Assembly (NCBI GenBank): GCA_034189385.1
Contig: JAXHVD010000002.1
Coordinates: forward strand, 96,001 to 160,000
Direction of reading: 5' to 3'
Length of the DNA: 64,000 bases
Origin: Thermodesulfobacteriota bacterium
GTDB taxonomy: Bacteria > Desulfobacterota > Desulfobacteria > Desulfobacterales > C00003060
A model generated the notes under the pieces. That model saw only the letters and a program-made list of their open reading frames with translations. It ran no database searches and had not been told where the DNA came from. Below, one piece after another: positions 9,266 through 63,602 of the stretch. The position numbers were made by a program, and so were the translations under genes. Each line of letters begins with the position of its first letter. Positions within the stretch are counted from its first letter, which is position 1.

Positions 9266-12200
9266 ATGGGCCTTAAAAGAATCAAAAGGTTCCTAGCGAG
9301 AAGAGGAATAACGGGCCTTTACTTTGGAAAGAGTCTGAAGACAGTCCCAGAAGGCTCGCTGGTTCTTTTTCCCTATGAGCCCGACGTGTTGAGCTGCGGG
9401 ATAACCGGTGTCCTGTCCTTTAAGGGAAGGCCTGCCGGAGCCCATGGGCTTCCCATTCAGGATCTCGAGGATAAGATAGAGGCCCTGTCCAAGGTTGCAG
9501 GGCAGAGGCTTGAAGAAAAAGGGCCCCTGCAAGAGAAAGATGATCTTGGCACAACAGAGCTCATAGGTGAGACAAAACACCTCTGCCAGAAGCTTAGGGA
9601 GCATCGGGTTTTCTACGAAGTCTTCTCCCGTCGAGCCTATCAAAAACGACTGACCGACCTCTGTGAGAAGCTTGAGGCGGTCGTGGAGTCTGAAGACATG
9701 GAACGGGCTCGGAGGATAGGACGCCTGGCCGCGGAAGAATGTGAGGCCCTCGCGCAACGAATAACGGAATTGCGGGACATTCTGTGGTCTTTACGGCACG
9801 AGATCATTGAGAACATTGAAAAGATAACTGCCCTTGGACGATTTGACCAGTATGACTGTGACCCCCTCTGTGTAGGGCTCCTGAAGGAGGTCAACATTAT
9901 ATTTAACAACCTTGATCGACTTGAAGTCAGAGGCAGGGATTCTGCCGGGCTCTCTCTCCTTTTCGTCATGGACGAGGCCGCGTTCACTGGGTTTCGACAA
10001 GCATTAAAAGAGGCATCACTGCTTGGTGAGTTTGAGGAAAGACAAGGGAACCCGGTCTTGTTGAATCGCAGCATCGTAACGAATAAGCAGGACACTGGTG
10101 TCTCTGTGATCTTTACCTACAAGGTTGCTGCCGAGGTAGGAAACCTGGGGGATAATGTCCGGTACTTGAGAAATCAGGTGAGAGATGATCTGGTGCTTCA
10201 GCACTGCATGCGGTGCAGTCATGTGTATCACAGTGCCGTGGCCCACACCCGTTGGGCCTCAGTCGGTGAAATCAGCGAGGCCAATTGCCATCCCGTTGAC
10301 AGCTGTCCCAGCGATTCGCCTAGGACCATTCACGTTTGCCTTAATGGAGATATTGATAACTACCAGAGTCTTCGGCAAGATCTTGAAAGAGAAACGGGCA
10401 AGTCTATTCCAGAAGAGATCACCACGGACACGAAGATTATCCCCCTTCAGATAGAGAAGTATCTCAACAAAGGGGAGACCCTTGAGGGATCTTTTCGCCT
10501 TGCTGTCAGCGATTTTGAGGGTTCCCATGCCATTGCGATGCATAGCGATCTGGCTCCGGGCCAGGTTTTTCTGGCGCAAAGAGGAAGCGGGCAGGCTATA
10601 TTTGTGGGTTTGGCGGAAGGTCATTATGTGCCTGCTTCTGAAATATATGGGTTGGTTGAAGAGACCTCTTGTTATGTGAAGATGGATGGCGAGAAAGTGG
10701 TGGAAGGGATATCTGGCAAGACCCAGGGTCAGATATTTGTCCTGGATGGGAATTCTGAAGGGGGGCTCAGTGGCCTGAGGGCCATGTATTATGACGGAAC
10801 GCCTGTTGAGCTTTCTGGGGATGACGTCAAAGAGACGGAAATCACGCCCAGAGATATTGATCGTCAGCATTATCCCCACTATTTCTTGAAGGAGGTCTCA
10901 GAATCCCCCCGGTCGGTGGAGCAGACCATTGAAGGGCGTGTGGCCATCTTAGAAGAAGGTGGGAGGCAACATCCCCAGATATTGCTGGACACCACAGTCA
11001 TTCCTGCTCATCTGGAAGCGGATTTCAGGGAACATAAGATCCGCAGGGTGTTTTTTATGGGCCAGGGCACAGCAGGGGTGGCCGCTTCGGCCTGTGCAGT
11101 GTTTTTGAGAGAGTACTTGAGCCGAACGGAGATTCGGGTGGCCTCCTTTAAGGCCTCTGAATTCAGTGCCTTTGTCTTGGAAGGTCGTCTTGATGACGCT
11201 CTGGTGGTGGCCATCACACAGTCGGGAACAACCACCGATACCAATCGGGCCATTGACATGGCCAGAGAACGGGGGGCCTGCACGTTGGCTATCGTGAACA
11301 GGCGAGATTCTGACATCACCTTTAAGGTGGATGGGGTGCTTTATACAAGTAGTGGGAGAGACATTGAAATGTCTGTAGCTTCCACCAAGGCTTACTATTC
11401 TCAGATTGTGGCGGGCAGCATCTTAGGTCTGAAACTAGGCCAATTGGCGGGGAGTTTGACGGAAGAGTTCATCCTGGCAGAGATAGAGCACCTTTGGAAG
11501 TTGCCTTCGTCTATGAGGAAAGTACTGGAAAGACATACGGACATCGGCGAGTCAGCCGAGAGATTTGCCGTTACAAAGACATATTGGGCTATTGTGGGTA
11601 GCGGTCCCAACAAGGTCTCTGCAGATGAGATCAGGATAAAGCTGAGTGAGCTTTGTTACAAGACCATTTCTTCAGACGTGGTTGAAGACAAGAAACACAT
11701 TGACCTGTCTTCCGAACCCCTGATTTTTGTCTGTGCAGCCGGCAACCGCGAGGATGTAGTCAGTGATATCGTCAAGGACACCGCGATCTTTAAGGCCCAC
11801 CAAGCAGTGCCCATAGTGGTGGCCACAGAAGGTGAACACCGATTTGATCCTTACGCCGATGCGGTAATCTCCGTGCCTGACACAGAGAGCCGGTTCGCGC
11901 CCATCATAAACACCTTGGCCGGTCACCTCTGGGGATACTATGCGGCCCTGGCGATTAACAAAGAATCTCGATATCTGGTGCATTTCCGTGAAGAGATTCG
12001 TGAACATATTCAGGCCTCTACGGGAAAGGGCCTGGATGTATACGAGATCGTGCTGGATGAAGGTTTCAGAGAGAAAGCGGCCGAGTTTTACGGGGTGTTC
12101 AAGGAGCGGATAAGGGAGAATCGTTACGCCACGGCCATGGCCATACGCACGGCATCGGACCTGACGCTGTTGCTGAAGTACCTGGCCGGAAGACTCCCTA

Positions 12201-12955
12201 TCTCAGATTTTGAGTTTGACTTTGGAACCAAAGGGACAGCACCGAATATGTTGAGGACCTTTTTTGAATGCATAGGAAAGATCGTCAACGAATTGGTGCG
12301 ACCTATTGATGCTATTAAGCACCAGGCCAAGACGGTCACCGTGGGAACAAGCCGGATCTCAGAGAAGGTAGAGGGCCTTCTTTTTAAAGCCCTTGAAAAT
12401 CAAGGGTTCAGCAAGAACCAAATTACAACAAGTAATGTCTTGGTCTTAAAGCGTCTACAGGAGGTTCTGAGCGAAATAGCAGGGACGACCCTCTACAAGG
12501 TAGCAGGGCTTAATATTTTGGGAGAGCCCGTTGCAGATTCGACCATACACCTGTTAAAGAAAGAGGGAAGTGCTGAGGCCCTTGTTTCCAGAGTTGAGAC
12601 CGACAACAGACTGCGGGGTACCAAACGGATCATCGTCAAGAACGGAAACATCTTTATTGGCAAGGGAAGAATGGACAACCGGAGTATTCTTGCCGTCCCA
12701 ATTATGTCAACGGGTACCAAGGTCGATCACCTCTTGTTGTTCAATGTAGCATTTAAGGCACAGGTTGAGCTTCAGAAGAAGGTAGATGCCTTAGGGGGCA
12801 AATATCACCACATACGAAACATTGTGGAGGAAACAAGTCTTGCCTGGAAGGATCAGTTTTTGGAATTACTTGATGTGGAGCAACTTTTTGGGATGTCTGC
12901 TGAGAAGATCTCAGAGGCGATTGTTTCCAGTTTGAATAACAGACAAGTATCGTAG
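9266..12955 (+). CDS. Large GlmS-like protein (class II glutamine amidotransferase plus two SIS domains, with insertions and extensions)
   Basis: CGITG, LEVRGRDSAG, AHTRWA, NCHP, NGDIDNY, SQ-like TQSGTTTDT, SVASTKAY, AKTVTVG; 1229 aa. Confidence 0.85.
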   Translation: MGLKRIKRFLARRGITGLYFGKSLKTVPEGSLVLFPYEPDVLSCGITGVLSFKGRPAGAHGLPIQDLEDKIEALSKVAGQRLEEKGPLQEKDDLGTTELIGETKHLCQKLREHRVFYEVFSRRAYQKRLTDLCEKLEAVVESEDMERARRIGRLAAEECEALAQRITELRDILWSLRHEIIENIEKITALGRFDQYDCDPLCVGLLKEVNIIFNNLDRLEVRGRDSAGLSLLFVMDEAAFTGFRQALKEASLLGEFEERQGNPVLLNRSIVTNKQDTGVSVIFTYKVAAEVGNLGDNVRYLRNQVRDDLVLQHCMRCSHVYHSAVAHTRWASVGEISEANCHPVDSCPSDSPRTIHVCLNGDIDNYQSLRQDLERETGKSIPEEITTDTKIIPLQIEKYLNKGETLEGSFRLAVSDFEGSHAIAMHSDLAPGQVFLAQRGSGQAIFVGLAEGHYVPASEIYGLVEETSCYVKMDGEKVVEGISGKTQGQIFVLDGNSEGGLSGLRAMYYDGTPVELSGDDVKETEITPRDIDRQHYPHYFLKEVSESPRSVEQTIEGRVAILEEGGRQHPQILLDTTVIPAHLEADFREHKIRRVFFMGQGTAGVAASACAVFLREYLSRTEIRVASFKASEFSAFVLEGRLDDALVVAITQSGTTTDTNRAIDMARERGACTLAIVNRRDSDITFKVDGVLYTSSGRDIEMSVASTKAYYSQIVAGSILGLKLGQLAGSLTEEFILAEIEHLWKLPSSMRKVLERHTDIGESAERFAVTKTYWAIVGSGPNKVSADEIRIKLSELCYKTISSDVVEDKKHIDLSSEPLIFVCAAGNREDVVSDIVKDTAIFKAHQAVPIVVATEGEHRFDPYADAVISVPDTESRFAPIINTLAGHLWGYYAALAINKESRYLVHFREEIREHIQASTGKGLDVYEIVLDEGFREKAAEFYGVFKERIRENRYATAMAIRTASDLTLLLKYLAGRLPISDFEFDFGTKGTAPNMLRTFFECIGKIVNELVRPIDAIKHQAKTVTVGTSRISEKVEGLLFKALENQGFSKNQITTSNVLVLKRLQEVLSEIAGTTLYKVAGLNILGEPVADSTIHLLKKEGSAEALVSRVETDNRLRGTKRIIVKNGNIFIGKGRMDNRSILAVPIMSTGTKVDHLLLFNVAFKAQVELQKKVDALGGKYHHIRNIVEETSLAWKDQFLELLDVEQLFGMSAEKISEAIVSSLNNRQVS

Positions 12956-13068: not shown

Positions 13069-14766
<1,698 letters not shown>

Positions 14767-14960: not shown

Positions 14961-15467
14961 TTACCTGTACGGGCTCATTTCTCTACAGATGCGGCCGCGA
15001 CAGGTGTGTTCCCCACAGGTCACGGTGCCTCCACAGGTAGCTCCTCCGCTGCCCGCACAGGTGGCCCCGCAGGTAATGTTACCAAAACAGGTTTCGCTCC
15101 CGGCGCAAGTGGTCGTGCCGCGACAGGTAGCTCCTCCGCTGCCCGCACAGGTCACGGCTGTCGTGGCGAACTGTTCCCAGCCGTGATGAACCTCCGCGTC
15201 GGCGAGCTCTATGACTCTTTTGGGCCCGGCGGTGCTGAGGACATTTTCGTTGATATAGGCACCCCGCGGGTCGTAAACCTCCCCATCTAGGGCGATTCTT
15301 GAGCTGCTTAAATCGGACAGGCTCTTGTCCAGCGATGCAAGAAAAAGAGGTGATGAAGAATCCGCATCGCTTGCCGCCCCCGCTCCAATAGACAGAACAG
15401 GAAAAACAAAGAGGCCCGCGACTGCCAGGAGCCAGACGACAAGAAACGATCTCAAGCCCTTTTTCAT
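14961..15467 (-). CDS. Secreted 168-aa protein with C-terminal Thr-Cys repeat core (precursor-peptide-like)
   Basis: GAGGAG RBS before ATG 15467; MKKGLR plus hydrophobic stretch plus AGAA signal peptide; C-terminal 9x TC plus 1 IC. Confidence 0.85.
   Translation of the reverse strand: MKKGLRSFLVVWLLAVAGLFVFPVLSIGAGAASDADSSSPLFLASLDKSLSDLSSSRIALDGEVYDPRGAYINENVLSTAGPKRVIELADAEVHHGWEQFATTAVTCAGSGGATCRGTTTCAGSETCFGNITCGATCAGSGGATCGGTVTCGEHTCRGRICREMSPYR
15033..15152. repeat. Exact 30-bp direct repeat (15033-15062 and 15123-15152), 90-bp period
   Basis: acaggtagctcctccgctgcccgcacaggt occurs twice and encodes TCAGSGGATC on the minus strand. Confidence 0.95.
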
Positions 15468-15537
15468 TTTCTCTTCCTCCTCGGTTGTGGTGCTTGCCCA
15501 AGACAACAATCTTGAAATCACCTTAGAAAATAACATA

Positions 15538-15587
15538 AAAGTAAATATAATTATATTTACTTTAATATAGTTGAGTCCCTATGTCAA
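15538..15587 (-). promoter_or_regulatory. Sigma70-type promoter with overlapping 26-bp perfect palindromic operator
   Basis: Minus strand TTGACA(15587-15582)-17 bp-TAAAGT(15564-15559); palindrome AAAGTAAATATAATTATATTTACTTT at 15538-15563. Confidence 0.8.
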
Positions 15588-15874
15588 GTTTTTTTGAGAA
15601 ATTGTTGGAAGGGTGGAAAGATTTGAAGGCCGTTGATCCGGCAGCCAGCGAAATTCTCTGGGGTTGGCTCCAGCGAAATAGCCAAAAAATAGTTTAATAT
15701 CAACAGATTATATGATATCCCTGGGCTTCTGACAAGAGATTTGACTGAGCCCTCATGGTGGCACCTTGACTCTCAATGAGCCGGGGGGCATCTGGTTTTC
15801 AAGTTCTTGAGGGACCTATTTTGTCCGCCGCGCAAAGGGGATTCGGGGTTCTGCAGGCGTCATCCCGTACAGAT

Positions 15875-18502
15875 TCAGTCACCCACAAGATCGTTCAGGA
15901 TCTTGAAAACGACCCTATATCTGTTCTGCTGGTGCCTGTTCGGGATGGAGCTGGCGTTTCCCAGGCCAACCCCCGAAAATGCCTTAGACATGGTGCAAAC
16001 CCATACCTTTCCTGTGCCAAAGGAGACTTCGGTGAGGCACGGAGCCCAGTGTCTCTCATGGTCCCCCCCATGGTCTTGTGCTGGCGCATACCATAAGCGG
16101 GGCTGTCCGCCCTTTACCTGGCAGATGCCATGGGCGGGGAAGGCAACACTCCGTTCGCTATTTGTCTCTTCAGAGAAGATATATGTGGCATCATCTGCGT
16201 CGCTATTGCCCTCTGAGGTGGTGTAGAGGATTTCTACGGAGAAAGGTTCTAGAAGCTGCCAGGCAAATGAGTCTTCAGCCCTGTCCGACGAATCCAGGAT
16301 TAAGGCCTTGCCACCCTGTGAAATATAGTCTTGAAAAATGGCCAGCTCCTTCTCGGAGAATTTTTTGTGGGGATTGATGATGATGATAGGATCTCTGTCC
16401 TTTTCAAGAGTGCGAACAAAGGAGGGTCTTACTTGCGGCACGATTCCGAGTCTCTGGGCAGAGACGAAAAAGGCACCGTAGTGGAGGGTATGGGTATTAC
16501 TCTTTTCCGGGAACCAGAAACGGTTTGCCAGAAAGATATCGGAGTGCTCACAGTCAAAGGTAATCTTCTGGAAATCTCTGAGCGCCGCAGGTTGTTTGTA
16601 GGACCATCGATGGATCAGGTCCACGTAGTAAGATGAGATGATCACTGTCATCATGAGGCATACAACAATGCTGCTATGATGCCTTCTCAACTCTTCAGAA
16701 GAAGGACTCAGAAACACCGCTAAAATGGCAAGGATACCAGATAGGAGTAACCCATACGGTTTCACATGGGCCCACCATGTGTTGGAGCGATTTAGCCACA
16801 TCAGGCTGTCCAGAAGCAGTTCAGGCTTGCCCTGATAAAACATGCTAAAATTGGACCACACTGTGCTGTCAGTGAAACAAAGGACCCGGCCCTTGCCTTC
16901 AAATGCTCCGGCCAACTGAAGAAAAAGACCAAACTCTCGGTCCTCGTAATGGGCCTCGTCAGGAAAAAAATGCTTGTTCTTATAGTCTGCTAGTCGAGTC
17001 ATCATGCCATAACCTATAATAGGTTTTTCATGCCAGACACGGGCGCTGAGCGTGCATCCAGTGGCGAACAAAATTTCTGGGGTGTGTTTTCCCACGGGAT
17101 GGCCCAGGGTTTTGGGCTGCCTGTAAACCGAAAACTGGCCGTAAATATCCCACTGGCCATTCTTGTCAAAGGACAGACCAAAGCGTTGAGCAAGATCGTT
17201 GAGGTGGGTCGACGTTCCAAAGACATCTGTGTGATCCCCAACGAGAAATAGTCCTCCACCATCATGTACAAAGGCCTCTAATGTTTCTAACTCTTCTCTT
17301 TCATACCTCCGGGTAGGGCACTTGAGGATGATGACATCCTGGTCTGCCAATAGGGCTGATCTTATCTCTTCTGTGTTCACTTTCACCTGATAGTAGTGCT
17401 CAAGAAATGTTCGTAAGCAGTAGTAGTTGTAGGTGGAAGCCATGCCATACCAGTTGGTATCAAAGGGCCGCATGGTCTTTTCCCACTGGCTGTGACTCTC
17501 GTCAATAAGCACCCTCCCGGCGTTCTTCGTTCCGGGATCGGTGAGTGATGATCCCATGATCCCCGCCATGATGGCCATGCAGACCAAGCCGGTCCAGCCA
17601 AGTACCCGTTTCGAAAGGCCCGCCCAGCCCAGACGTACGCGTCCAGTCCAGTTGACCTTCTTTGTCGACAAGGCCAGTCCGACTGCCAAAGGGACGAAAC
17701 TCAGTAGGCCATACACCGCATTCCACATCATGGTGATAGTGGCCTTGTCTGCCCAACCAAGAAAAATCCATAGGGACACAAGATATCGTGCCAACAGATA
17801 AGAGGCCCACAAAAAGAGAATCCTCAGCCAGCCTTTCCACGGCTTGTGTTGCACCATCAGCAACGAGCATAGACTGACACCGATGAGAATGAAAAGCCCC
17901 GGCAAGAGTCCTAAGGCATCTGCTGTGACCTGTATGATTCTGTAATCACCGTTGTAGTTGGCAACAAGGGTATGACCGTTAACAGAACAGGTTGTGCCCA
18001 GGAAGGTGAAAACCGTGGCAGCCAATGAAGCAAGCCAAGAGAGGCCTCGGTCATGACAGCCCAAGTAATACCAAAGGGGGACCAGGAGGCTTTCCACGGT
18101 GAGCAAAAGACCAGAGACCAGAAGCCCTGGGACTAGGGACCGGATAAAGACGCTGTTCCGGCCGCAGCAGAAAAGGGCCAACCCAGAGACAAGAATCCAG
18201 GGGCCAAGGGAGTGCGGATAGGGCATAAGCAGGCCATAAAGGATAAATGGCACAAGGATCCAGAGATAGTCCCATGATATGTCGAGCTGAATATGGCGCA
18301 GGGATATTATGAAAAGCGTCGCACCGCTGACAGCCAAGACATAGCCGAACCATGCTTCATACGTTGCCAGCTTGTAAGTGCTCACATAAACACCAGACCA
18401 ACAGGTCCAGGCGAAGCCCACACAGACGACTCCAAGCCAAAAGAGGACCTTTTTCAACATGTCTTCTCTACTGGTCTGTTTCATAGATTCGCTAATCTTC
18501 AT
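15875..18502 (-). CDS. Polytopic membrane protein: exosortase-like TM domain plus two GATase1/DUF4350-like domains (paralogue B)
   Basis: Many hydrophobic helices in the first ~320 aa; RVLIDESH, FVHDGGGLFLVGDHTD, GKGRVLCFTDSTVWSN; 2 TMs; second domain ITFDCEH...YISQGGKALIL. Confidence 0.8.
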   Translation of the reverse strand: MKISESMKQTSREDMLKKVLFWLGVVCVGFAWTCWSGVYVSTYKLATYEAWFGYVLAVSGATLFIISLRHIQLDISWDYLWILVPFILYGLLMPYPHSLGPWILVSGLALFCCGRNSVFIRSLVPGLLVSGLLLTVESLLVPLWYYLGCHDRGLSWLASLAATVFTFLGTTCSVNGHTLVANYNGDYRIIQVTADALGLLPGLFILIGVSLCSLLMVQHKPWKGWLRILFLWASYLLARYLVSLWIFLGWADKATITMMWNAVYGLLSFVPLAVGLALSTKKVNWTGRVRLGWAGLSKRVLGWTGLVCMAIMAGIMGSSLTDPGTKNAGRVLIDESHSQWEKTMRPFDTNWYGMASTYNYYCLRTFLEHYYQVKVNTEEIRSALLADQDVIILKCPTRRYEREELETLEAFVHDGGGLFLVGDHTDVFGTSTHLNDLAQRFGLSFDKNGQWDIYGQFSVYRQPKTLGHPVGKHTPEILFATGCTLSARVWHEKPIIGYGMMTRLADYKNKHFFPDEAHYEDREFGLFLQLAGAFEGKGRVLCFTDSTVWSNFSMFYQGKPELLLDSLMWLNRSNTWWAHVKPYGLLLSGILAILAVFLSPSSEELRRHHSSIVVCLMMTVIISSYYVDLIHRWSYKQPAALRDFQKITFDCEHSDIFLANRFWFPEKSNTHTLHYGAFFVSAQRLGIVPQVRPSFVRTLEKDRDPIIIINPHKKFSEKELAIFQDYISQGGKALILDSSDRAEDSFAWQLLEPFSVEILYTTSEGNSDADDATYIFSEETNSERSVAFPAHGICQVKGGQPRLWYAPAQDHGGDHERHWAPCLTEVSFGTGKVWVCTMSKAFSGVGLGNASSIPNRHQQNRYRVVFKILNDLVGD

Positions 18503-20954
18503 CTATTGTTCCAACAAGTTTTCTTAGAAAGTAGATGTTTGCCGAGCTTGCCCAATCCAGTTTTTCCAATCGGCCATTGAAGAAGAGGCCGTAGTCTGAA
18601 ATTGCCGTCAATGTGCCTTTTCCAACCTTGCGCTCCACGACAACAGGGTATTTCTCCTTAAATGCCGTACAAAGGATCTCTTCCTCTTTTAGCCCATCCA
18701 CTGCCATTGGATTGGCATTGTACATGAGGATCCCTTCACTGTTGTTTTCAGGGGCAACGGCCCCCAGTGGCGTTGATAGTATTTCCAGTCCATATGATTT
18801 GAGAAAATCCTTTGTCCCATGAGCACAGCGGTCCCCTGACAGCATGACAAGTTGTGCCCCCCTTTTCATGAATTCATCAAGCATACGGCATTCATCCTTG
18901 GAGTATGGTTTTGTCGTGGCCATGCTCATCATTAAGAGGGATTTTTCCAGAGCTCTCTCGTTGAATTGCTTCCAAGCCATGGGGATAAAGCCATTGCGTA
19001 CGAGGCTGTCTACCAAATATGTGTCTCCATCATCCTTGGCATAGCCTTCATGATCGCAAAGGGACATATGGGCATGATCGAGGTATGCAATAGGCCCGGT
19101 GTAGTCATGGTCTTTGTAGCATAAGTGCAACGCCCATTCTCCCATGATAATAGCTGCACTAACGGACAGGATCACCACAGTGACTATGGCAATAGACTGT
19201 TTTTTCCATGGTCCCACCCACAGCGCAAGACCCAGAACCAAGACGAGCACCAAGCCCCAGGGAAGGCCAACGGATTTTCCGTGAACCGCCCACCTGAAAA
19301 GATCAGAGACGTAGCGGTGGCAATAGGGTAGGGAGCCCATCTGTAGCAAGGCTGTGTCTCCAAAGACAATGACTTTGCCGTCTTCCAGTTTAGACTCTGC
19401 TGCCAAAACAATATCGCCAAGGGGTTCGTCTAGGTCGTATATTCGATCGCCGAGGTAGTTCTCTGATAAGGCGTTGGCCCTATCCCCGTCGTCTGAGAAG
19501 CCGTATCTGGCAATAAGAAAAGGGGTCGCTCTATGATTTAAGAGGCGCAATGAGGCGCCCACTGATACTCCCATGCCATCTTTGTCCCAGTCTTTTCTGT
19601 TTATGGGGTGTGGGCGCGTCAAGAAGGCATCGTTCCAGTAGTTGTTTAGAAAATGAGCAGAATCGAAGTTAATGCGGATGGGAACCTCTGACAGTAACTC
19701 ATTAGATCCTTTCATCAAGCCAGACATATCTGTATGATCGGCGAACACCATCAGTGTGCCGCCTTGTCTGACATAGTCATTTAGAATGGAATAGTCTTCT
19801 TCTTTCCATTTCTCGTTGAAGTTCATGACCACAAAGACATCTGCATTTGTTAACATTGCCTTTGATACTTGCCTTGTCAGTTTGACACGAAATCCGAAGC
19901 TTTCAAGGAAATCGGGAAGGACGCAGAAAAGCCCCGGTCTGTTGGTGGTACCAAGCTGTTCAAAGTTTGGTTTGTTCCAGGTCGTGATGCCTCCTTGATA
20001 GAGGACTAGACGACCACTATAGTCTCCTGCCGGCCACTGAGATGTCACATAGGAAACGGTAACCAACAACAACCAGAGGGCTGCAGTTCCAAGGATCATC
20101 TTTTTGCTCGCTCTGTGGGATTTCACTGCCTGCCCTGCGTCAGGTCTTGACGTGCCATGAAGAAAAAAATGGATGATCAAACACTCCATGACAAAGAGTA
20201 TGGGTGTAAAATCCAGGGCGGTGAACCCCTGTTCGGCCATGACGTCCCACGACATGGCTGCTGATCTTCGTTGCGTCATAACATAGGCCAACCATGCCAG
20301 GGATAGAGCCCCAAAATGGTTTACAGACAGCAGCACCACACTGACAACGACACCCCTTTTCCATAATTGGCGGAGCCAAGGGGAAATGCGAATCCACGTA
20401 TAGATGGTGCAGATCGCTAATCCCCACATGCCCATGGCAGTGGGGCCCAATTTCAGAGAAAGGCCAAAGATCCTACCCAGAAGATAGGACGCCTTCCTTG
20501 CGTATCCCTCTATGAAGAACCAGGCCGTTGGAGACAATTCTGCGGCAAGGCTCAATACAAAGTAGGTAAACAGCGTCCACATGATGGCTAGGCGAGCACC
20601 TCTGTGTCTGGGGGCAGCCCTTGGAATTGAAAGGATTAAGGTAAGTAGTGCCAGAAGATATGCCTGGGCCACAATAGGCTTGGTTTGTGGTTCAAGCCGA
20701 GACAAGACGAACAAGAAAGACAAGACAATGAATAGCCAGGACAGTCTTTGGTATGGGGCCTCTTTATCCATCTGACTGGCAGTGACCATTGCCACTGCCA
20801 GGAGAGAGAACAAGACAAGAAGTGCATTTGCCAGGGGCGAAACTCTGAGAATGCTTCCGGATGTGAGCAACACAGCAAAGGAGCTTAACCCAAATAGGAG
20901 TGTATTCGTCACTGCACGTCTCCAGAAGTCACATTGATCAGAAGAGGTCTGCAT
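18492..20954 (-). CDS. Polytopic membrane protein with two GATase1/DUF4350-like domains (paralogue A)
   Basis: N-terminal multi-TM region; YVRQGGTLMVFADHTD, DGKVIVFGDT; 2 TMs; IAYLDHAH...FMKRGAQLV...VGKGTLTAISD; stop overlaps the start of the next gene. Confidence 0.8.
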   Translation of the reverse strand: MQTSSDQCDFWRRAVTNTLLFGLSSFAVLLTSGSILRVSPLANALLVLFSLLAVAMVTASQMDKEAPYQRLSWLFIVLSFLFVLSRLEPQTKPIVAQAYLLALLTLILSIPRAAPRHRGARLAIMWTLFTYFVLSLAAELSPTAWFFIEGYARKASYLLGRIFGLSLKLGPTAMGMWGLAICTIYTWIRISPWLRQLWKRGVVVSVVLLSVNHFGALSLAWLAYVMTQRRSAAMSWDVMAEQGFTALDFTPILFVMECLIIHFFLHGTSRPDAGQAVKSHRASKKMILGTAALWLLLVTVSYVTSQWPAGDYSGRLVLYQGGITTWNKPNFEQLGTTNRPGLFCVLPDFLESFGFRVKLTRQVSKAMLTNADVFVVMNFNEKWKEEDYSILNDYVRQGGTLMVFADHTDMSGLMKGSNELLSEVPIRINFDSAHFLNNYWNDAFLTRPHPINRKDWDKDGMGVSVGASLRLLNHRATPFLIARYGFSDDGDRANALSENYLGDRIYDLDEPLGDIVLAAESKLEDGKVIVFGDTALLQMGSLPYCHRYVSDLFRWAVHGKSVGLPWGLVLVLVLGLALWVGPWKKQSIAIVTVVILSVSAAIIMGEWALHLCYKDHDYTGPIAYLDHAHMSLCDHEGYAKDDGDTYLVDSLVRNGFIPMAWKQFNERALEKSLLMMSMATTKPYSKDECRMLDEFMKRGAQLVMLSGDRCAHGTKDFLKSYGLEILSTPLGAVAPENNSEGILMYNANPMAVDGLKEEEILCTAFKEKYPVVVERKVGKGTLTAISDYGLFFNGRLEKLDWASSANIYFLRKLVGTIDED

Positions 20955-21127
20955 GAGCTGACCGTGGATTTCTGTTCTCTGCTATCATAAATGGTGGCAT
21001 GTTGCCAACACAGGGATTTCAAGGGGCCTTTAAACATGTTATGATACTGCGTCGCAAACAGGGCCTGAAAAGTGATTTGCTCCGGTGCCCATGTTCAAAT
21101 CAGTGCAAAAGGAGGACACCCCTGGCC

Positions 21128-21466
21128 ATGCAGGCACAAGAAATCAAAGCCATATCCAGCGAAAAGTACCTGGGTGAGATCATAGACTCGGGCTGGTCCA
21201 TGGTTGGTCCTAGAAAGGATCCAGACAAGAATTTGCGTTCAGCGAAGAACTTCTTTAAACGGGACATTGCCTTCGTCCCAGAACATGTCTTGAAGGCCGA
21301 CGGTTTCAAGATCGTTCCGCCCAGCAGTTTCACGCGGGGCCATCAGCTCATGTACAAGGACGACGGGAAACTGATCCGCTACACCAAGAGCCAGTACACG
21401 CTTACTTCTGGGGAATCTGAGGTCCCTCTCTATGTTTTTTTAAGGGAGGATGAAACGGACCTGTAG
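21128..21466 (+). CDS. Hypothetical protein (112 aa)
   Basis: AGGAGG upstream of ATG 21128; coherent ORF with no recognised motif. Confidence 0.65.
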   Translation: MQAQEIKAISSEKYLGEIIDSGWSMVGPRKDPDKNLRSAKNFFKRDIAFVPEHVLKADGFKIVPPSSFTRGHQLMYKDDGKLIRYTKSQYTLTSGESEVPLYVFLREDETDL

Positions 21467-21558: not shown

Positions 21559-22443
21559 ATGCCGCTAGACATAAGAGACGCCCCATACCTGAATCACGAT
21601 GATATATTGGACCTGAATTTCATCAAGGACCCAGGAGTGTATGTTTTCAGGAGGCATTATCGCCAAGGATTGCGCTCCCATATCATGGAGATATTGAGCC
21701 CCCAGGCAGTGGCAAACGAAACACGGGGGGTCTATTTAGAGGGATCGATGCGATATCCAAAGGCTGAGCCCTCTAAGATGTTAAGGTTGTTTAGAGCCAG
21801 ATTCAACAGCCTCAAAGAGGCTAAAGAAGAGTTGACAAGGGTTAAACTCATAATGGCCTACCTTGCTCCTGATCATCTGGGAAGGCCTGAAGAATTCCTC
21901 GTCGATTATTCGCTATCTGGCCAAGGGGAGATCCTTCTTTGCGGTCTCCAGGAATATGTGCACGGTGAGGTCCTGGATCCTTGGAGTCTCCTGAATAGGA
22001 ACCATCTGGTGTCCATGCTAAACGACATGGGCTGTGATGGGGCCGGCGAGGCAGGCAGAGAAGGCGACCAATGGGCCCATTGCGTGCGGGAAAAGGCGGC
22101 CAGCCTTGTACAAAAGCTCAAAGAGATGATCATGGAGGCCCATCACGTACCGGATCTTGCGGGCATAGGAAATCTGATACTTACCCGGAACGGAGACATC
22201 AAACTTGTGGACATCAACAACATCTCCAGGGTTTTTTTTGACACGACTATCAGTCTCGATGACAGGGGGTATCCGGTCTGCGACAAATCGATTCAGGCCC
22301 TCTCCCTTCTTGAGAAGAAACTCCTTGGGAGGTCTTTAGGTAAAGATCACCCTATCTATGGGGTATTCCTTGATCCTGAAAGGATGAAAAACGTTGACGC
22401 GGCAGAAAATGCCTTCTACCTTTCTATGGAGACAAAGAAGTAA
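21559..22443 (+). CDS. Hypothetical protein with protein-kinase-like catalytic-loop motif
   Basis: HHVPDLAGIGNLILTRNGDIKLVDINN resembles HxDLxxxN...IKLxD. Confidence 0.6.
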   Translation: MPLDIRDAPYLNHDDILDLNFIKDPGVYVFRRHYRQGLRSHIMEILSPQAVANETRGVYLEGSMRYPKAEPSKMLRLFRARFNSLKEAKEELTRVKLIMAYLAPDHLGRPEEFLVDYSLSGQGEILLCGLQEYVHGEVLDPWSLLNRNHLVSMLNDMGCDGAGEAGREGDQWAHCVREKAASLVQKLKEMIMEAHHVPDLAGIGNLILTRNGDIKLVDINNISRVFFDTTISLDDRGYPVCDKSIQALSLLEKKLLGRSLGKDHPIYGVFLDPERMKNVDAAENAFYLSMETKK

Positions 22444-61314: not shown

Positions 61315-62578
61315 TTGAAGGCATTATCAGCCATAAAGCCTGTCAGTTGGATGAAGGTAGCACTCTACGGGCTTTTGCTTAGGGGTGGTTATCATTCCAC
61401 GCTTACATACCTCATTCGACACTGGTCGAGAGACGATTTTACTTACTGCCCTGGACGGGGCTCTTATGCTTTTCCTTGGGCATTGCCTTTTTCTGGCTGG
61501 GAGAGCTTGGCGGGGAGTATTTAACCCTCTACCTGTCTGTGTGGCTGGTCCTGGTGGGCCTTTGCTGGTTTCACCTGGGGTGGCAGAAGCTTAAAATCAT
61601 TGCCTTTCCTCTGGTCATGGCCTTGGCCATGTTCCCTTTGCCCGGCTTTCTTTACGGGAAGATCTCCGTGCAGTTGAAACTGATCTCCTCACACCTTGGC
61701 GTAGCCATGATGCAGCTGTCCGGCATGTCCGCCTACCGGGAAGGAAATGTCATTGACCTTGGATTTACGCAACTCCAGGTCGTGGATGCCTGTAGCGGGC
61801 TCAGATATCTGATTCCCTTGATCGTCCTTGGCGTCCTTCTGCCTACATGTTCAAGGCGGTCCTCTGAAAAAGGGCGGTGGTGGTCCTTTCCACGGTGCCC
61901 CTTTCCATCATTACGAACAGCCTGCGCATTGCCTTGACGGGCATTCTGTACGAAGTAGCAGGACCAAGGGTGGCGGAGGGCTTCTTCCACGGATTTTCGG
62001 GGTGGTTTATCTTTATGTTTTCTCTGGCAGTACTGCTTGCGGAGATGAAGGTTCTGGGGTTTCAGTTCAAAACAGAGGGCAGAGGGCAGACGGCAGAGGA
62101 CAGTGACGAGGAACAGGAGGCTCAAGGCTCAAGGCAAGAGGAAGCTGAAGGCTCAAAGCTGAAGGCTGAAAGCAATAAACGTGACGGAAACAGTCCGCAG
62201 GGCCGTTCTAGTCCTTTGAGCTTTCAACTTTCAGCTTTCAGCTCCTTTTTTTCTCCTCCTCAGTTCATGGTGGCAGTCATTCTTCTGGGGCTAACCTTTG
62301 GCCTTTCACAAGGCGTGGAATTTCGTGAGAAAATTCCCATCAGCAAGTCATTTGACTACTTTCCAATGGAGGTGGGGGCGTGGTCTGGAAAGGCTCAGAC
62401 CATGGAACAGCGGTTTGTCGATACCCTGGACCTGAGCGACTATGTGCTTATTGACTACAAGGATCGCGGGGGCCGCATTGTGAACTTTTATGTGGCCTAT
62501 TATGAGAGCCAGAGAAAGGGAGAGTCCATCCACTCGCCGGCCACGTGTCTGCCCGGTGGCGGATGGCTGTTCAAAGAG
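61315..62578 (+). pseudogene. Exosortase-EpsI fusion pseudogene
   Basis: REGNVIDLG..QLQVVDACSGLR, NSLRI, FFHGFSG, EpsI IHSPATCLPGGGW; frameshifting deletion near 61449, -1 frameshift near 61841, in-frame TGA at 61865. Confidence 0.88.
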
Positions 62579-63602
62579 GCTGTCTTTGTTATCTATGTGG
62601 TCCAGACTCTATTGGTCACCTCGGCGTTTCTCTTCAGGTTCTATTCGGAATGGTTTCTCTTGATGGCATATGTGTTCTTTTCAGTCACCATCCTTGCAGC
62701 CTTTTTTTGTGCAGAGAAGTCAGGATGGAAACTCCACCGTTACGACTTGCTGGATGTCGTTATCAAAGGAAAGCTGAGGGTCCTCAAGGAGAAGAGGTAT
62801 CTTATTAGAGTTTCCTATAAGATGGTAAAAATAGGGCTGCCTGTACTGCTCCTTTTCTCCTGTTTTCTTCCGGCAACCATGCCTAGAAATGTGGGTTTAT
62901 TGGCACCAGTACTAGTGTCATTACTAACTGTGCAGCGGAAAGCCTTTTACGTGCGACATTGAGTATTTTCGGAATCAGAGGTCAGCTGAGTGAAGCGCTA
63001 AGAATCATAAACTGTTTGAGGACGTTAGCCCGAGTTTTTATGATTCAGCGCAGCGAAGCTGACGTCCCGGAAATGCTCACGGAGCCCGGAAAATGGCTTG
63101 AAGGCGGCACTCTACTTCTTAAAGGGACTTCTGAGACGCGACACTAGGTTTTCTGGGTCTTATCGGCACGGTGTTGCTCGTGAAAAGGGAATGGGCTGGA
63201 GGGGCGTGTCGTCTGAGTGTATATCTCCTGGTCCCGTTTTTGATCTACTTGGACGAACGGTACGCTGCGGCCTGGATGGGTGCCCAGGCAACAATGGCCT
63301 ACAATCTTTCTTTTGGGGCCTTGGTTTTATTCGTGATCGTAACACTGAAGTACACAAGCCGAAAAAAGGGGTTCAAGACCACGCCAATGGACTTCCTGAT
63401 CCTGGCCATCGTGCTCATCGTTCCGAATTTGCCTGATCCTCAGATTCAAGCCTACGGCATGGGCCTGGTGGCCGCCAAGATTGTGGTGATCTTTTTCAGT
63501 TATGAGGTCCTCATGGGCGAGCTTCGGGGAGCATATGGGTCACTTAGCCTGACAACTCTGGCCTTCTTGGGAATAACAGGAGTAAGGGGTCTTATAGGTT
63601 GA
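62579..63602 (+). pseudogene. C-terminal membrane part of a probable WecA/MraY-type glycosyl-1-phosphate transferase, interrupted by the MITE
   Basis: AVFVIYVVQ... TM series continues in frame across the element into FKTTPMDFLIL...KIVVIFFSYE; family assignment inferred. Confidence 0.6.
62916..63143 (+). mobile_element. 228-bp MITE-like element with CTAG target duplication and TGTC/GACA termini
   Basis: CTAG at 62912-62915 and 63144-63147; excision restores the reading frame. Confidence 0.92.

Follow-up and report, generated by a model that had tools for sequence, protein, structure and literature searches.

Three neighbouring minus-strand genes, termed here A, B and C, were analysed in a 64,000-nucleotide stretch (the window) of contig JAXHVD010000002.1 from a Thermodesulfobacteriota bacterium (GCA_034189385.1), and they constitute a system whose reality and conservation are well supported by comparative sequence data, in which two membrane proteins (A and B) accompany an exported substrate (C) rich in threonine (Thr) and cysteine (Cys). 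The interpretation that we favour, with a probability of roughly 0.55, is that A and B together would cross-link each Thr to the next Cys as a methyllanthionine-type thioether outside the membrane. At the sequence level, four features stand out, namely the obligate pairing of A with B, the leader shared by the substrates, the register that leads from each Thr to the next Cys and a Thr site that favours hydroxyl residues; what we infer is that the leader is bound, that the cross-link forms and that two sites in the first GIFT domains (GIFT1) divide the labour. A modification resembling that of RiPPs (peptides made by the ribosome and modified after translation) had been listed as one option by the original prediction for this locus, and it is the one that the data favour.

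The evidence that carries this interpretation comes from the Thr/Cys cores of the substrates. In C, a spare upstream Thr is followed by nine Thr-Cys (TC) units and then by a tenth Cys without a preceding Thr; the earlier description of an exported protein with nine such units was right about the units, and is corrected here in the likely start, at 15467. With 9 TC in 70 residues, C ranks first in TC richness among 98,912 six-frame open reading frames (ORFs) of the genome, the runner-up having 4. Across a register set of 92 distinct substrates, the spacings fall into the classes T-C, T-x-C, T-x7-C and T-x8-C, and 1950 of 2118 inter-Cys intervals contain a Thr, against 1556 ± 15 in 200 shuffles. 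In T-C cores an adjacent Thr is found at 1228 of 1358 internal Cys and at just 3 of the 43 last Cys of complete cores, the corresponding figures for the T-x-C class being 678/720 and 4/15, and a terminal TC occurs in 3 of 24 enzyme clusters. Four to nine residues upstream of the first Cys, a Thr is present in 45 of 48 cases, often in the form Pro-Thr-x4-Cys. The pattern was replicated in proteins picked solely by their leader, where an adjacent Thr is present at 5 of 55 last and 672 of 847 internal Cys and the first Cys has its upstream Thr in 59 of 63.

The final Cys devoid of an adjacent Thr, together with the spare Thr at the start of the core, implies that the Thr beside Cys n pairs with Cys n+1. 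One-to-one matching of 1824 Cys gave 95% for a Thr four to nine residues upstream, compared with 61% for bonding of adjacent Thr and Cys and 86-87% for pairing of a Cys with a downstream Thr, and these two worse-fitting candidates were rejected. The distance from Thr to the next Cys is 7 residues in 529 and 5 in 445 of 1228 instances. As read from the sequences, Thr is paired with the next Cys five to nine residues on, which unifies all of the classes as Thr-x(4-8)-Cys; the TC repeats noticed at the outset are real, and the repeating unit is a Thr and the following Cys rather than the TC dipeptide.

The composition of the cores also bears on a structural alternative, in which the Thr/Cys repeats would form a disulfide-rich or metal-binding solenoid, with A and B as a folding or metal-loading machine and no chemistry on Thr. 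The regular spacings of 4, 6 and 7 residues fit this picture, GIFT domains often serve as scaffolds, and a leader-bearing DsbA-like protein is linked to the substrate in one locus (L074). However, even Cys counts were found in 33 of 60 cores of the first set and 31 of 55 of the leader-picked set, and such a similarity of even and odd counts gives no disulfide-pair signal, by which pairwise disulfides were ruled out as the main purpose. Moreover, spacing is mixed within single proteins, and Ser, with a 2.5-fold enrichment, is what most often replaces Thr (44 of 129 cases, spread over 12 proteins), neither Val nor Ile being enriched. The presence of two invariant polar sets in the GIFT1 domains, which look like active sites, argues in the same direction, and we consider the solenoid improbable. 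An antifreeze-type Thr-Cys-Thr solenoid was set aside on the mixed spacing and the parity.

The substrates are organised as a hydrophobic signal, a conserved S-P-L-F-x-x-S-L motif (the SPLF leader, which reads S-P-L-F-x-x-R in archaea), a spacer and the Thr/Cys core, and they are predicted to be exported; neither this leader nor the register had been recognised in the original prediction. Of 53 loci flanked by 3 kb on either side, 41 contain a substrate gene (24 of 29 when clusters at 50% identity are counted), a figure that combines matches to a hidden Markov model (HMM) of the leader with Thr/Cys-rich ORFs added by hand and leaves out a TC-rich ORF in locus L071. Hence most homologous gene pairs do keep the Cys-rich exported partner that had been proposed. 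In three of five tested genomes without a neighbouring substrate, a gene with leader and core was located elsewhere. Among 121 relatives of the window genome, leader matches (E ≤ 0.01) were detected in eight, and Thr/Cys cores only in two (G000 and G013), both of which possess B; a further relative, G033, has B and no leader match. In 22 substrates scanned, leader and core were without any Pfam or NCBIfam model, and several of the substrates have surface domains, of the FlgD-Ig/T9SS-like, SLH, CWB2 and OmpL47 types, at their ends. A search of 1.84 billion proteins with the leader only returned 132 matches, from which 11 close to earlier ones were dropped, and 83 of the 121 new proteins have Cys cores, while 21 are short or cut.

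The archaeal chromosome G190 encodes 29 leader matches and one A gene, and its cores are variable and arranged around a hydrophobic helix. A shared leader, variable cores and 29 matches in a single genome amount to a RiPP pattern. In 25 of its proteins, two of which were already in the first substrate set, 52 of 91 Cys have an upstream Thr and 23 a downstream one, a weaker signal than in the other sets and one of the same direction. From thioether ring formation one would expect hydroxyls and thiols to be matched one-to-one, the thiol coming later, in proteins with a common leader.

Several variants of the substrate were noted. The archaeal substrates L217-L238 (G190), L057, L059 and L157 are arranged in tandem arrays and have a long helical spacer and a hydrophobic C-terminal helix with Thr/Cys units on its flanks; they resemble variable membrane-active peptides. 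In Desulfonema magnum (L074:12998-18765), a DsbA-like thioredoxin (CxxC) bears the SPLF leader as a fusion and adjoins a 1449-residue TxC substrate whose own leader is degenerate, so that the leader may be supplied in trans along with a thiol-redox helper; a thioredoxin-fold gene is linked in this locus only. Five leader-bearing proteins (P0169, P0189, P0196, P0203 and P0211) lack the Thr/Cys core and have an N-terminus similar to that of the L074 fusion, and these are possibly accessory proteins recruited by the leader. In the Planctomycete-type substrates (L051, L069, L150, L151 and L158), the TxC core is preceded by a large domain at the N-terminus, and SPLF is replaced by a conserved 'IDMAF' motif, their B proteins forming one clade. 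Mapping of the leader site by comparison of SPLF with non-SPLF clades was abandoned as confounded by ancestry.

The system is widely and patchily distributed. A profile scan with the B alignment confirmed at least 425 of at least 599 candidate stretches in genome contigs and at least 367 of at least 591 in metagenomes, of which the best 80 from each source were fetched. Carriers belong to Desulfobacterota, Bacteroidota, Chloroflexota, Planctomycetota, Firmicutes, Verrucomicrobia, Latescibacterota, Eisenbacteria, Thermotogae and Thermoplasmatota, and B is present in 3 of the 121 relatives of the window genome. A shares the locus with B in 96 of 100 loci having at least 3.2 kb upstream of B, and five genomes in which it does not adjoin B, three of the four exceptions among them, all encode it elsewhere; by gene content, the pairing of A with B is obligate. 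In 81 genomes of an archaeal class, which are kin and not independent, A occurs in 13 and leader matches (E ≤ 1e-4) in seven, all within those 13. In a FastTree phylogeny of B, the TxC class is mostly confined to one deep clade and the Thr-x7/8-Cys class appears in at least two places, which was not counted as co-evolution because linked genes are co-inherited. Gene A is in pieces in assemblies L006, L031, L034 and L059, through either decay or assembly error. In the clade of L002, L005, L028, L042 and L054, the substrate genes occur in several copies, between which lie a recurring gene of about 350 residues and apparent ABC/efflux export genes, the latter named by eye.

Beyond the substrate, no regular neighbour family was found; the level of 6 of 50 enzyme clusters was exceeded by a mixed repeat group only. 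In another alternative, A and B would be a sensor or a transport accessory with C as ligand or cargo. GldG-type domains belong to accessories of ABC transporters, and weak TIGR03521 matches point that way; however, the predicted topology shows no cytoplasmic output domain, and ABC ATPases (family named by eye from sequence) are near just 7 of 160 loci. Such a role is hardly to be expected.

A and B are built on one plan, comprising N-terminal transmembrane (TM) helices (8 in A and 9 in B by hydropathy, in keeping with the 8-10 originally estimated), a GIFT domain, two further helices and a second GIFT domain. By sequence comparison the two proteins are paralogues, as had been proposed: BLASTP aligns them at 21% identity over 469 columns (E 9e-15), and HHalign of the two GIFT1 profiles gives a probability of 99.9. 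The proposed GIFT/DUF4350 assignment was upheld by both HMM and fold evidence. Each protein has two DUF4350/IFT52_GIFT stretches, and all 56 members match PF14258, PF23355 and PF09822. AlphaFold models were obtained for A (mean predicted local distance difference test, pLDDT, 91.7; predicted template-modelling score, pTM, 0.92; alignment of 95 sequences) and B (pLDDT 92.2, pTM 0.92; 70 sequences), the top fold matches of which, with the membrane domains barely probed, are the IFT52 GIFT domain, site-1 protease and OST48/Wbp1. Superposition on IFT52 gave Z 22.1 and a root-mean-square deviation (rmsd) of 2.4 over 206 residues for B, and Z 19.9 and 2.5 over 187 residues for A. Both GIFT domains of each protein are predicted to face outward, helices being counted from an assumed cytoplasmic N-terminus; the short loops of B agree with the positive-inside rule, and the fit of A is weaker, with two helix limits set by hand. 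A search of the ESM Atlas with the membrane part of B and with C returned no usable match.

Conservation was assessed with one representative per 50% cluster (48 B, 34 A). Near-invariant polar residues in A are D/E406-H407-T408, D431, W440, D488, E510, D514, D533, R653 and E797, of which H407, D431, W440, D488, E510, D514 and D533 are kept in 34/34. In B, R239, E341, Y358, K394, H424, H468, R539, D545, S546 and T547 are kept in 48/48 and C483 in 44/48, and the conserved set of its GIFT1 also includes D/E423-H424-T425 and Y507. An Asp/Glu-His-Thr motif after a core strand is common to A and B; in a check at the sequence level for the Cys-His-Glu triad of class I glutamine amidotransferases, this strand-end motif contained no Cys. 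The invariant polar sets of the two GIFT1 domains may represent two active sites. In the membrane domain of B, R239 is accompanied by E/D195 (45/48) and W260 (47/48). A complex prediction with the four GIFT domains and a 30-residue leader scored 0.00, with controls not folded, and is evidence neither way.

On this basis, a mechanism can be outlined. Working jointly at the external membrane surface, A and B would modify exported proteins enzymatically, recognising them by their SPLF leader and linking every Thr, in places a Ser, with the Cys that follows five to nine residues downstream, so that a chain of overlapping rings would result. The two GIFT1 sites may divide the labour into activation or loss of the hydroxyl and activation of the thiol, the latter possibly via a metal held by His424, His468, Cys483 and Asp545 of B. 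ATP should be missing on that side of the membrane, so that, as a guess, Thr would be activated either directly at a metal or via a lipid-borne group in the membrane domain of B (Arg239, Glu195, His152). In bacteria the products would be rigid stalks on surface proteins, and in archaea small or membrane peptides of diverse kinds.

The main rival reading has A and B attaching a lipid-derived group (a sugar, phosphoglycerol, phosphoethanolamine or acyl group) to the Thr of a Thr-x(4-8)-Cys sequon, in which the Cys would be a recognition element or temporary relay and would not be left cross-linked. This alternative fits the register and the preference for Thr/Ser no less well than cross-linking does, GIFT domains are found in oligosaccharyltransferase subunits (Z 17-18.6), and the Arg, Glu and His of the B membrane domain could hold a lipid head group. 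Nevertheless, it leaves unexplained why a separate Cys is provided for every Thr, up to more than 100 times; genes for glycosyltransferases or lipid donors do not recur near the loci, and no GT-C or alkaline-phosphatase fold is among the listed fold matches, in which the membrane part was barely probed. We hold it to be doubtful.

A third possibility is that of an exosortase-like protease or transpeptidase cutting after the leader (often before Pro-Thr) and anchoring or releasing the substrate. The original prediction had called A and B 'exosortase-like' and listed protein sorting as one option; sorting or anchoring of the exosortase type is not supported by the data. An exosortase family HMM did not match A or B of the window; none of the 56 members matched at E ≤ 0.1 with NCBIfam models, nor was there a match among 25 of 26 Pfam families; and the exosortase fold was absent from the fold matches, which GIFT domains dominated. 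Against 14 exosortase segments from related genomes, HHalign reached probabilities of 0.9 (B) and 5.6 (A), with 0.1 and 0.3 for reversed controls. In the weak register so obtained, R239 of B falls on the exosortase Arg, for which A has no equivalent; no Cys is among the top residues at the Cys position in the 48 B or 34 A representatives, and the His position is occupied by Trp260 in B. The catalytic triad of exosortases is Cys-Arg-His, as stated in bioRxiv 10.1101/2023.06.07.544157. Furthermore, C has no C-terminal TM helix, and no C-terminal signal of the motif-TM-basic kind, the shared signal being N-terminal. The retained Arg and the Pro-Thr that opens many cores speak for sorting; the repeated register and the Thr-less last Cys are left unexplained by it, and such a role is very unlikely. 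Judged by these comparisons, A and B are not exosortases, and a degenerate exosortase-like membrane domain is plausible; leader removal could be a side activity of the pair. A genuine exosortase gene does occur in the window at 61446-62962 (+), about 40 kb from A, B and C in a polysaccharide-type gene region, and looks split by a frameshift near 61850-61940 into two PF09721 pieces (ORFs 61476-61937 and 61877-62962); an intact copy is present on contig C8 of the same genome.

A number of observations weigh against thioether formation. Asp shows a mild, 2.0-fold enrichment where Thr is expected (16/129), upstream matching in G190 covers only 52/91 Cys (null 36.8 ± 4.0, maximum 51), and repeat units within one protein are not independent, so that pooled P-values overstate the case. 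Twelve of the 121 new leader matches contain fewer than four Cys and five have scattered Cys, the Planctomycete-type substrates show no recognisable SPLF leader, and gene A is interrupted in the assembly of G190. On the enzymatic side, C483 of B is replaced by Asp or Asn in 4/48 representatives, no recurring kinase or other activating enzyme was seen beside A and B, and free Cys outside the cell would need protection from oxidation. We know of no catalytic function for the GIFT domains of IFT52, OST48 or site-1 protease, and to our knowledge all lanthipeptide dehydrations depend on ATP or Glu-tRNA and are cytoplasmic.

Lanthipeptides such as nisin and those of the prochlorosin type share with the C family a conserved leader and a variable core rich in Thr/Ser and Cys, the N-to-C order of Thr before Cys, and many substrates per enzyme, as in the archaea here. 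In nisin, an adjacent Thr-Cys belongs to two different rings. The C substrates differ in having a Sec-type signal peptide, enzymes predicted to face outward and cores that reach more than 100 units, often on large surface proteins. No LanB, LanC, LanM, LanKC or LanL gene is a recurring neighbour of the A/B loci; LanC-like PF05147, the one Lan family searched genome-wide, was absent from four of five genomes (including G190 and G000) and present far from the locus in the fifth. A radical-SAM maturase of the sacti- or ranthipeptide type was not among the recurring neighbours in 50 enzyme clusters, a statement to which no HMM search for it contributes. The last two rings of nisin are intertwined, according to PMC4698656.

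Exosortases and archaeosortases (PF09721) are resembled by A and B in how the elements follow one another (a helix, then an outer beta-hairpin, then three helices) and, in B, by an Arg at the aligned place; A and B differ in lacking the triad Cys and His, in their fusion to two GIFT domains and in the N-terminal substrate signal. The fold is common to GIFT/DUF4350 proteins (IFT52, OST48/Wbp1, the fourth domain of site-1 protease, GldG), from which A and B are distinguished by tandem copies in a polytopic paralogue pair, invariant polar residues of their own and a dedicated substrate. An archaeal DUF4350 family has a single C-terminal TM helix (PMC5898192). Domain III of dimethylformamidase (PMC7686228) holds an Fe site in a ThuA/GATase-like fold, which can thus hold a metal active site. 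It superposes on B with Z 11.8 and rmsd 4.8 over 220, and in a one-sequence alignment its His-x-Glu and the Asp-His-Thr of A and B lie on separate strands; the residue equivalence was rejected.

The features of the locus are compiled in the table below. The three minus-strand ORFs, including the 11-nucleotide overlap of the A and B reading frames, were confirmed as first called, and each gene is single-copy in the 4.13 Mb genome. The start of C at ATG 15467 is the most likely one on sequence grounds, because a strong ribosome-binding site lies just upstream. About 400 nucleotides separate B from C and contain both sigma-70-like matches, so that C possibly has its own promoter. The trio is flanked by pyrG on one side and by two unannotated plus-strand ORFs on the other (20999-21466 and 21559-22443), which have no Pfam or NCBIfam match; the 294-residue product of the latter contains the stretch 'DIKLVDINN', which we take to be reminiscent of kinase motifs, and is absent from the recurring neighbour families of the A/B loci. 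Elsewhere in the window, a GlmS-like protein of 1229 residues (9266-12955, plus strand; named from its sequence) is about twice the usual length.

Table. Coordinates of the features of the A/B/C locus in the window
Feature	Coordinates	Strand	Remarks
Gene A	20954-18492	minus	ORF, 820 residues
A N-terminal membrane domain	20903-20043	minus	
A GIFT1	20018-19275	minus	
A GIFT2	19097-18510	minus	two TM helices separate GIFT1 from GIFT2
Gene B	18502-15875	minus	ORF, 875 residues
B GIFT1	17524-16778	minus	
B GIFT2	16573-15884	minus	two TM helices separate GIFT1 from GIFT2
Two sigma-70-like matches upstream of C	15559-15735	minus	consensus pattern match only, 11/12 and 10/12
Gene C (substrate)	14961-15467	minus	168 residues from likely start; 191 from upstream ATG at 15536
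C signal peptide, residues 1-31	15375-15467	minus	predicted; hydrophobic segment 9-27, cleavage site judged by eye
C SPLF leader, residues 39-55	15303-15353	minus	conserved; predicted amphipathic helix
C Thr/Cys core, residues 102-161	14985-15164	minus	ten predicted overlapping Thr-to-next-Cys pairs
pyrG	13084-14766		flanks the A/B/C trio; named from its sequence

No family model or description of the system was found in a partial coverage of the literature, so that an earlier description is possible. The full proposal, to which we give even odds, is that of an undescribed class of thioether synthetase made of two GIFT membrane paralogues. This class would work without ATP and outside the membrane, building ladders of poly-methyllanthionine; its targets would be surface proteins in many phyla of bacteria and, in Thermoplasmata, variable peptides numbering dozens per genome. 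It would be the first case of GIFT domains acting as catalysts of protein modification. Should the cross-link prove real, rings of the thioether type would be installed after export by enzymes unrelated to the known lanthipeptide synthetases, and a new class of RiPP or protein modification would extend across bacteria and archaea. It would also offer a leader-guided tool that accepts rings of 5-9 residues and can place over 100 of them on a fused protein, as well as a testable catalytic function for a domain shared with OST48, IFT52 and site-1 protease, and a cultured carrier is at hand in Desulfonema magnum (L074). Even with another chemistry, the two enzymes of an envelope modification in many uncultured lineages would be defined, together with its sequon and the motif by which substrates are recognised.

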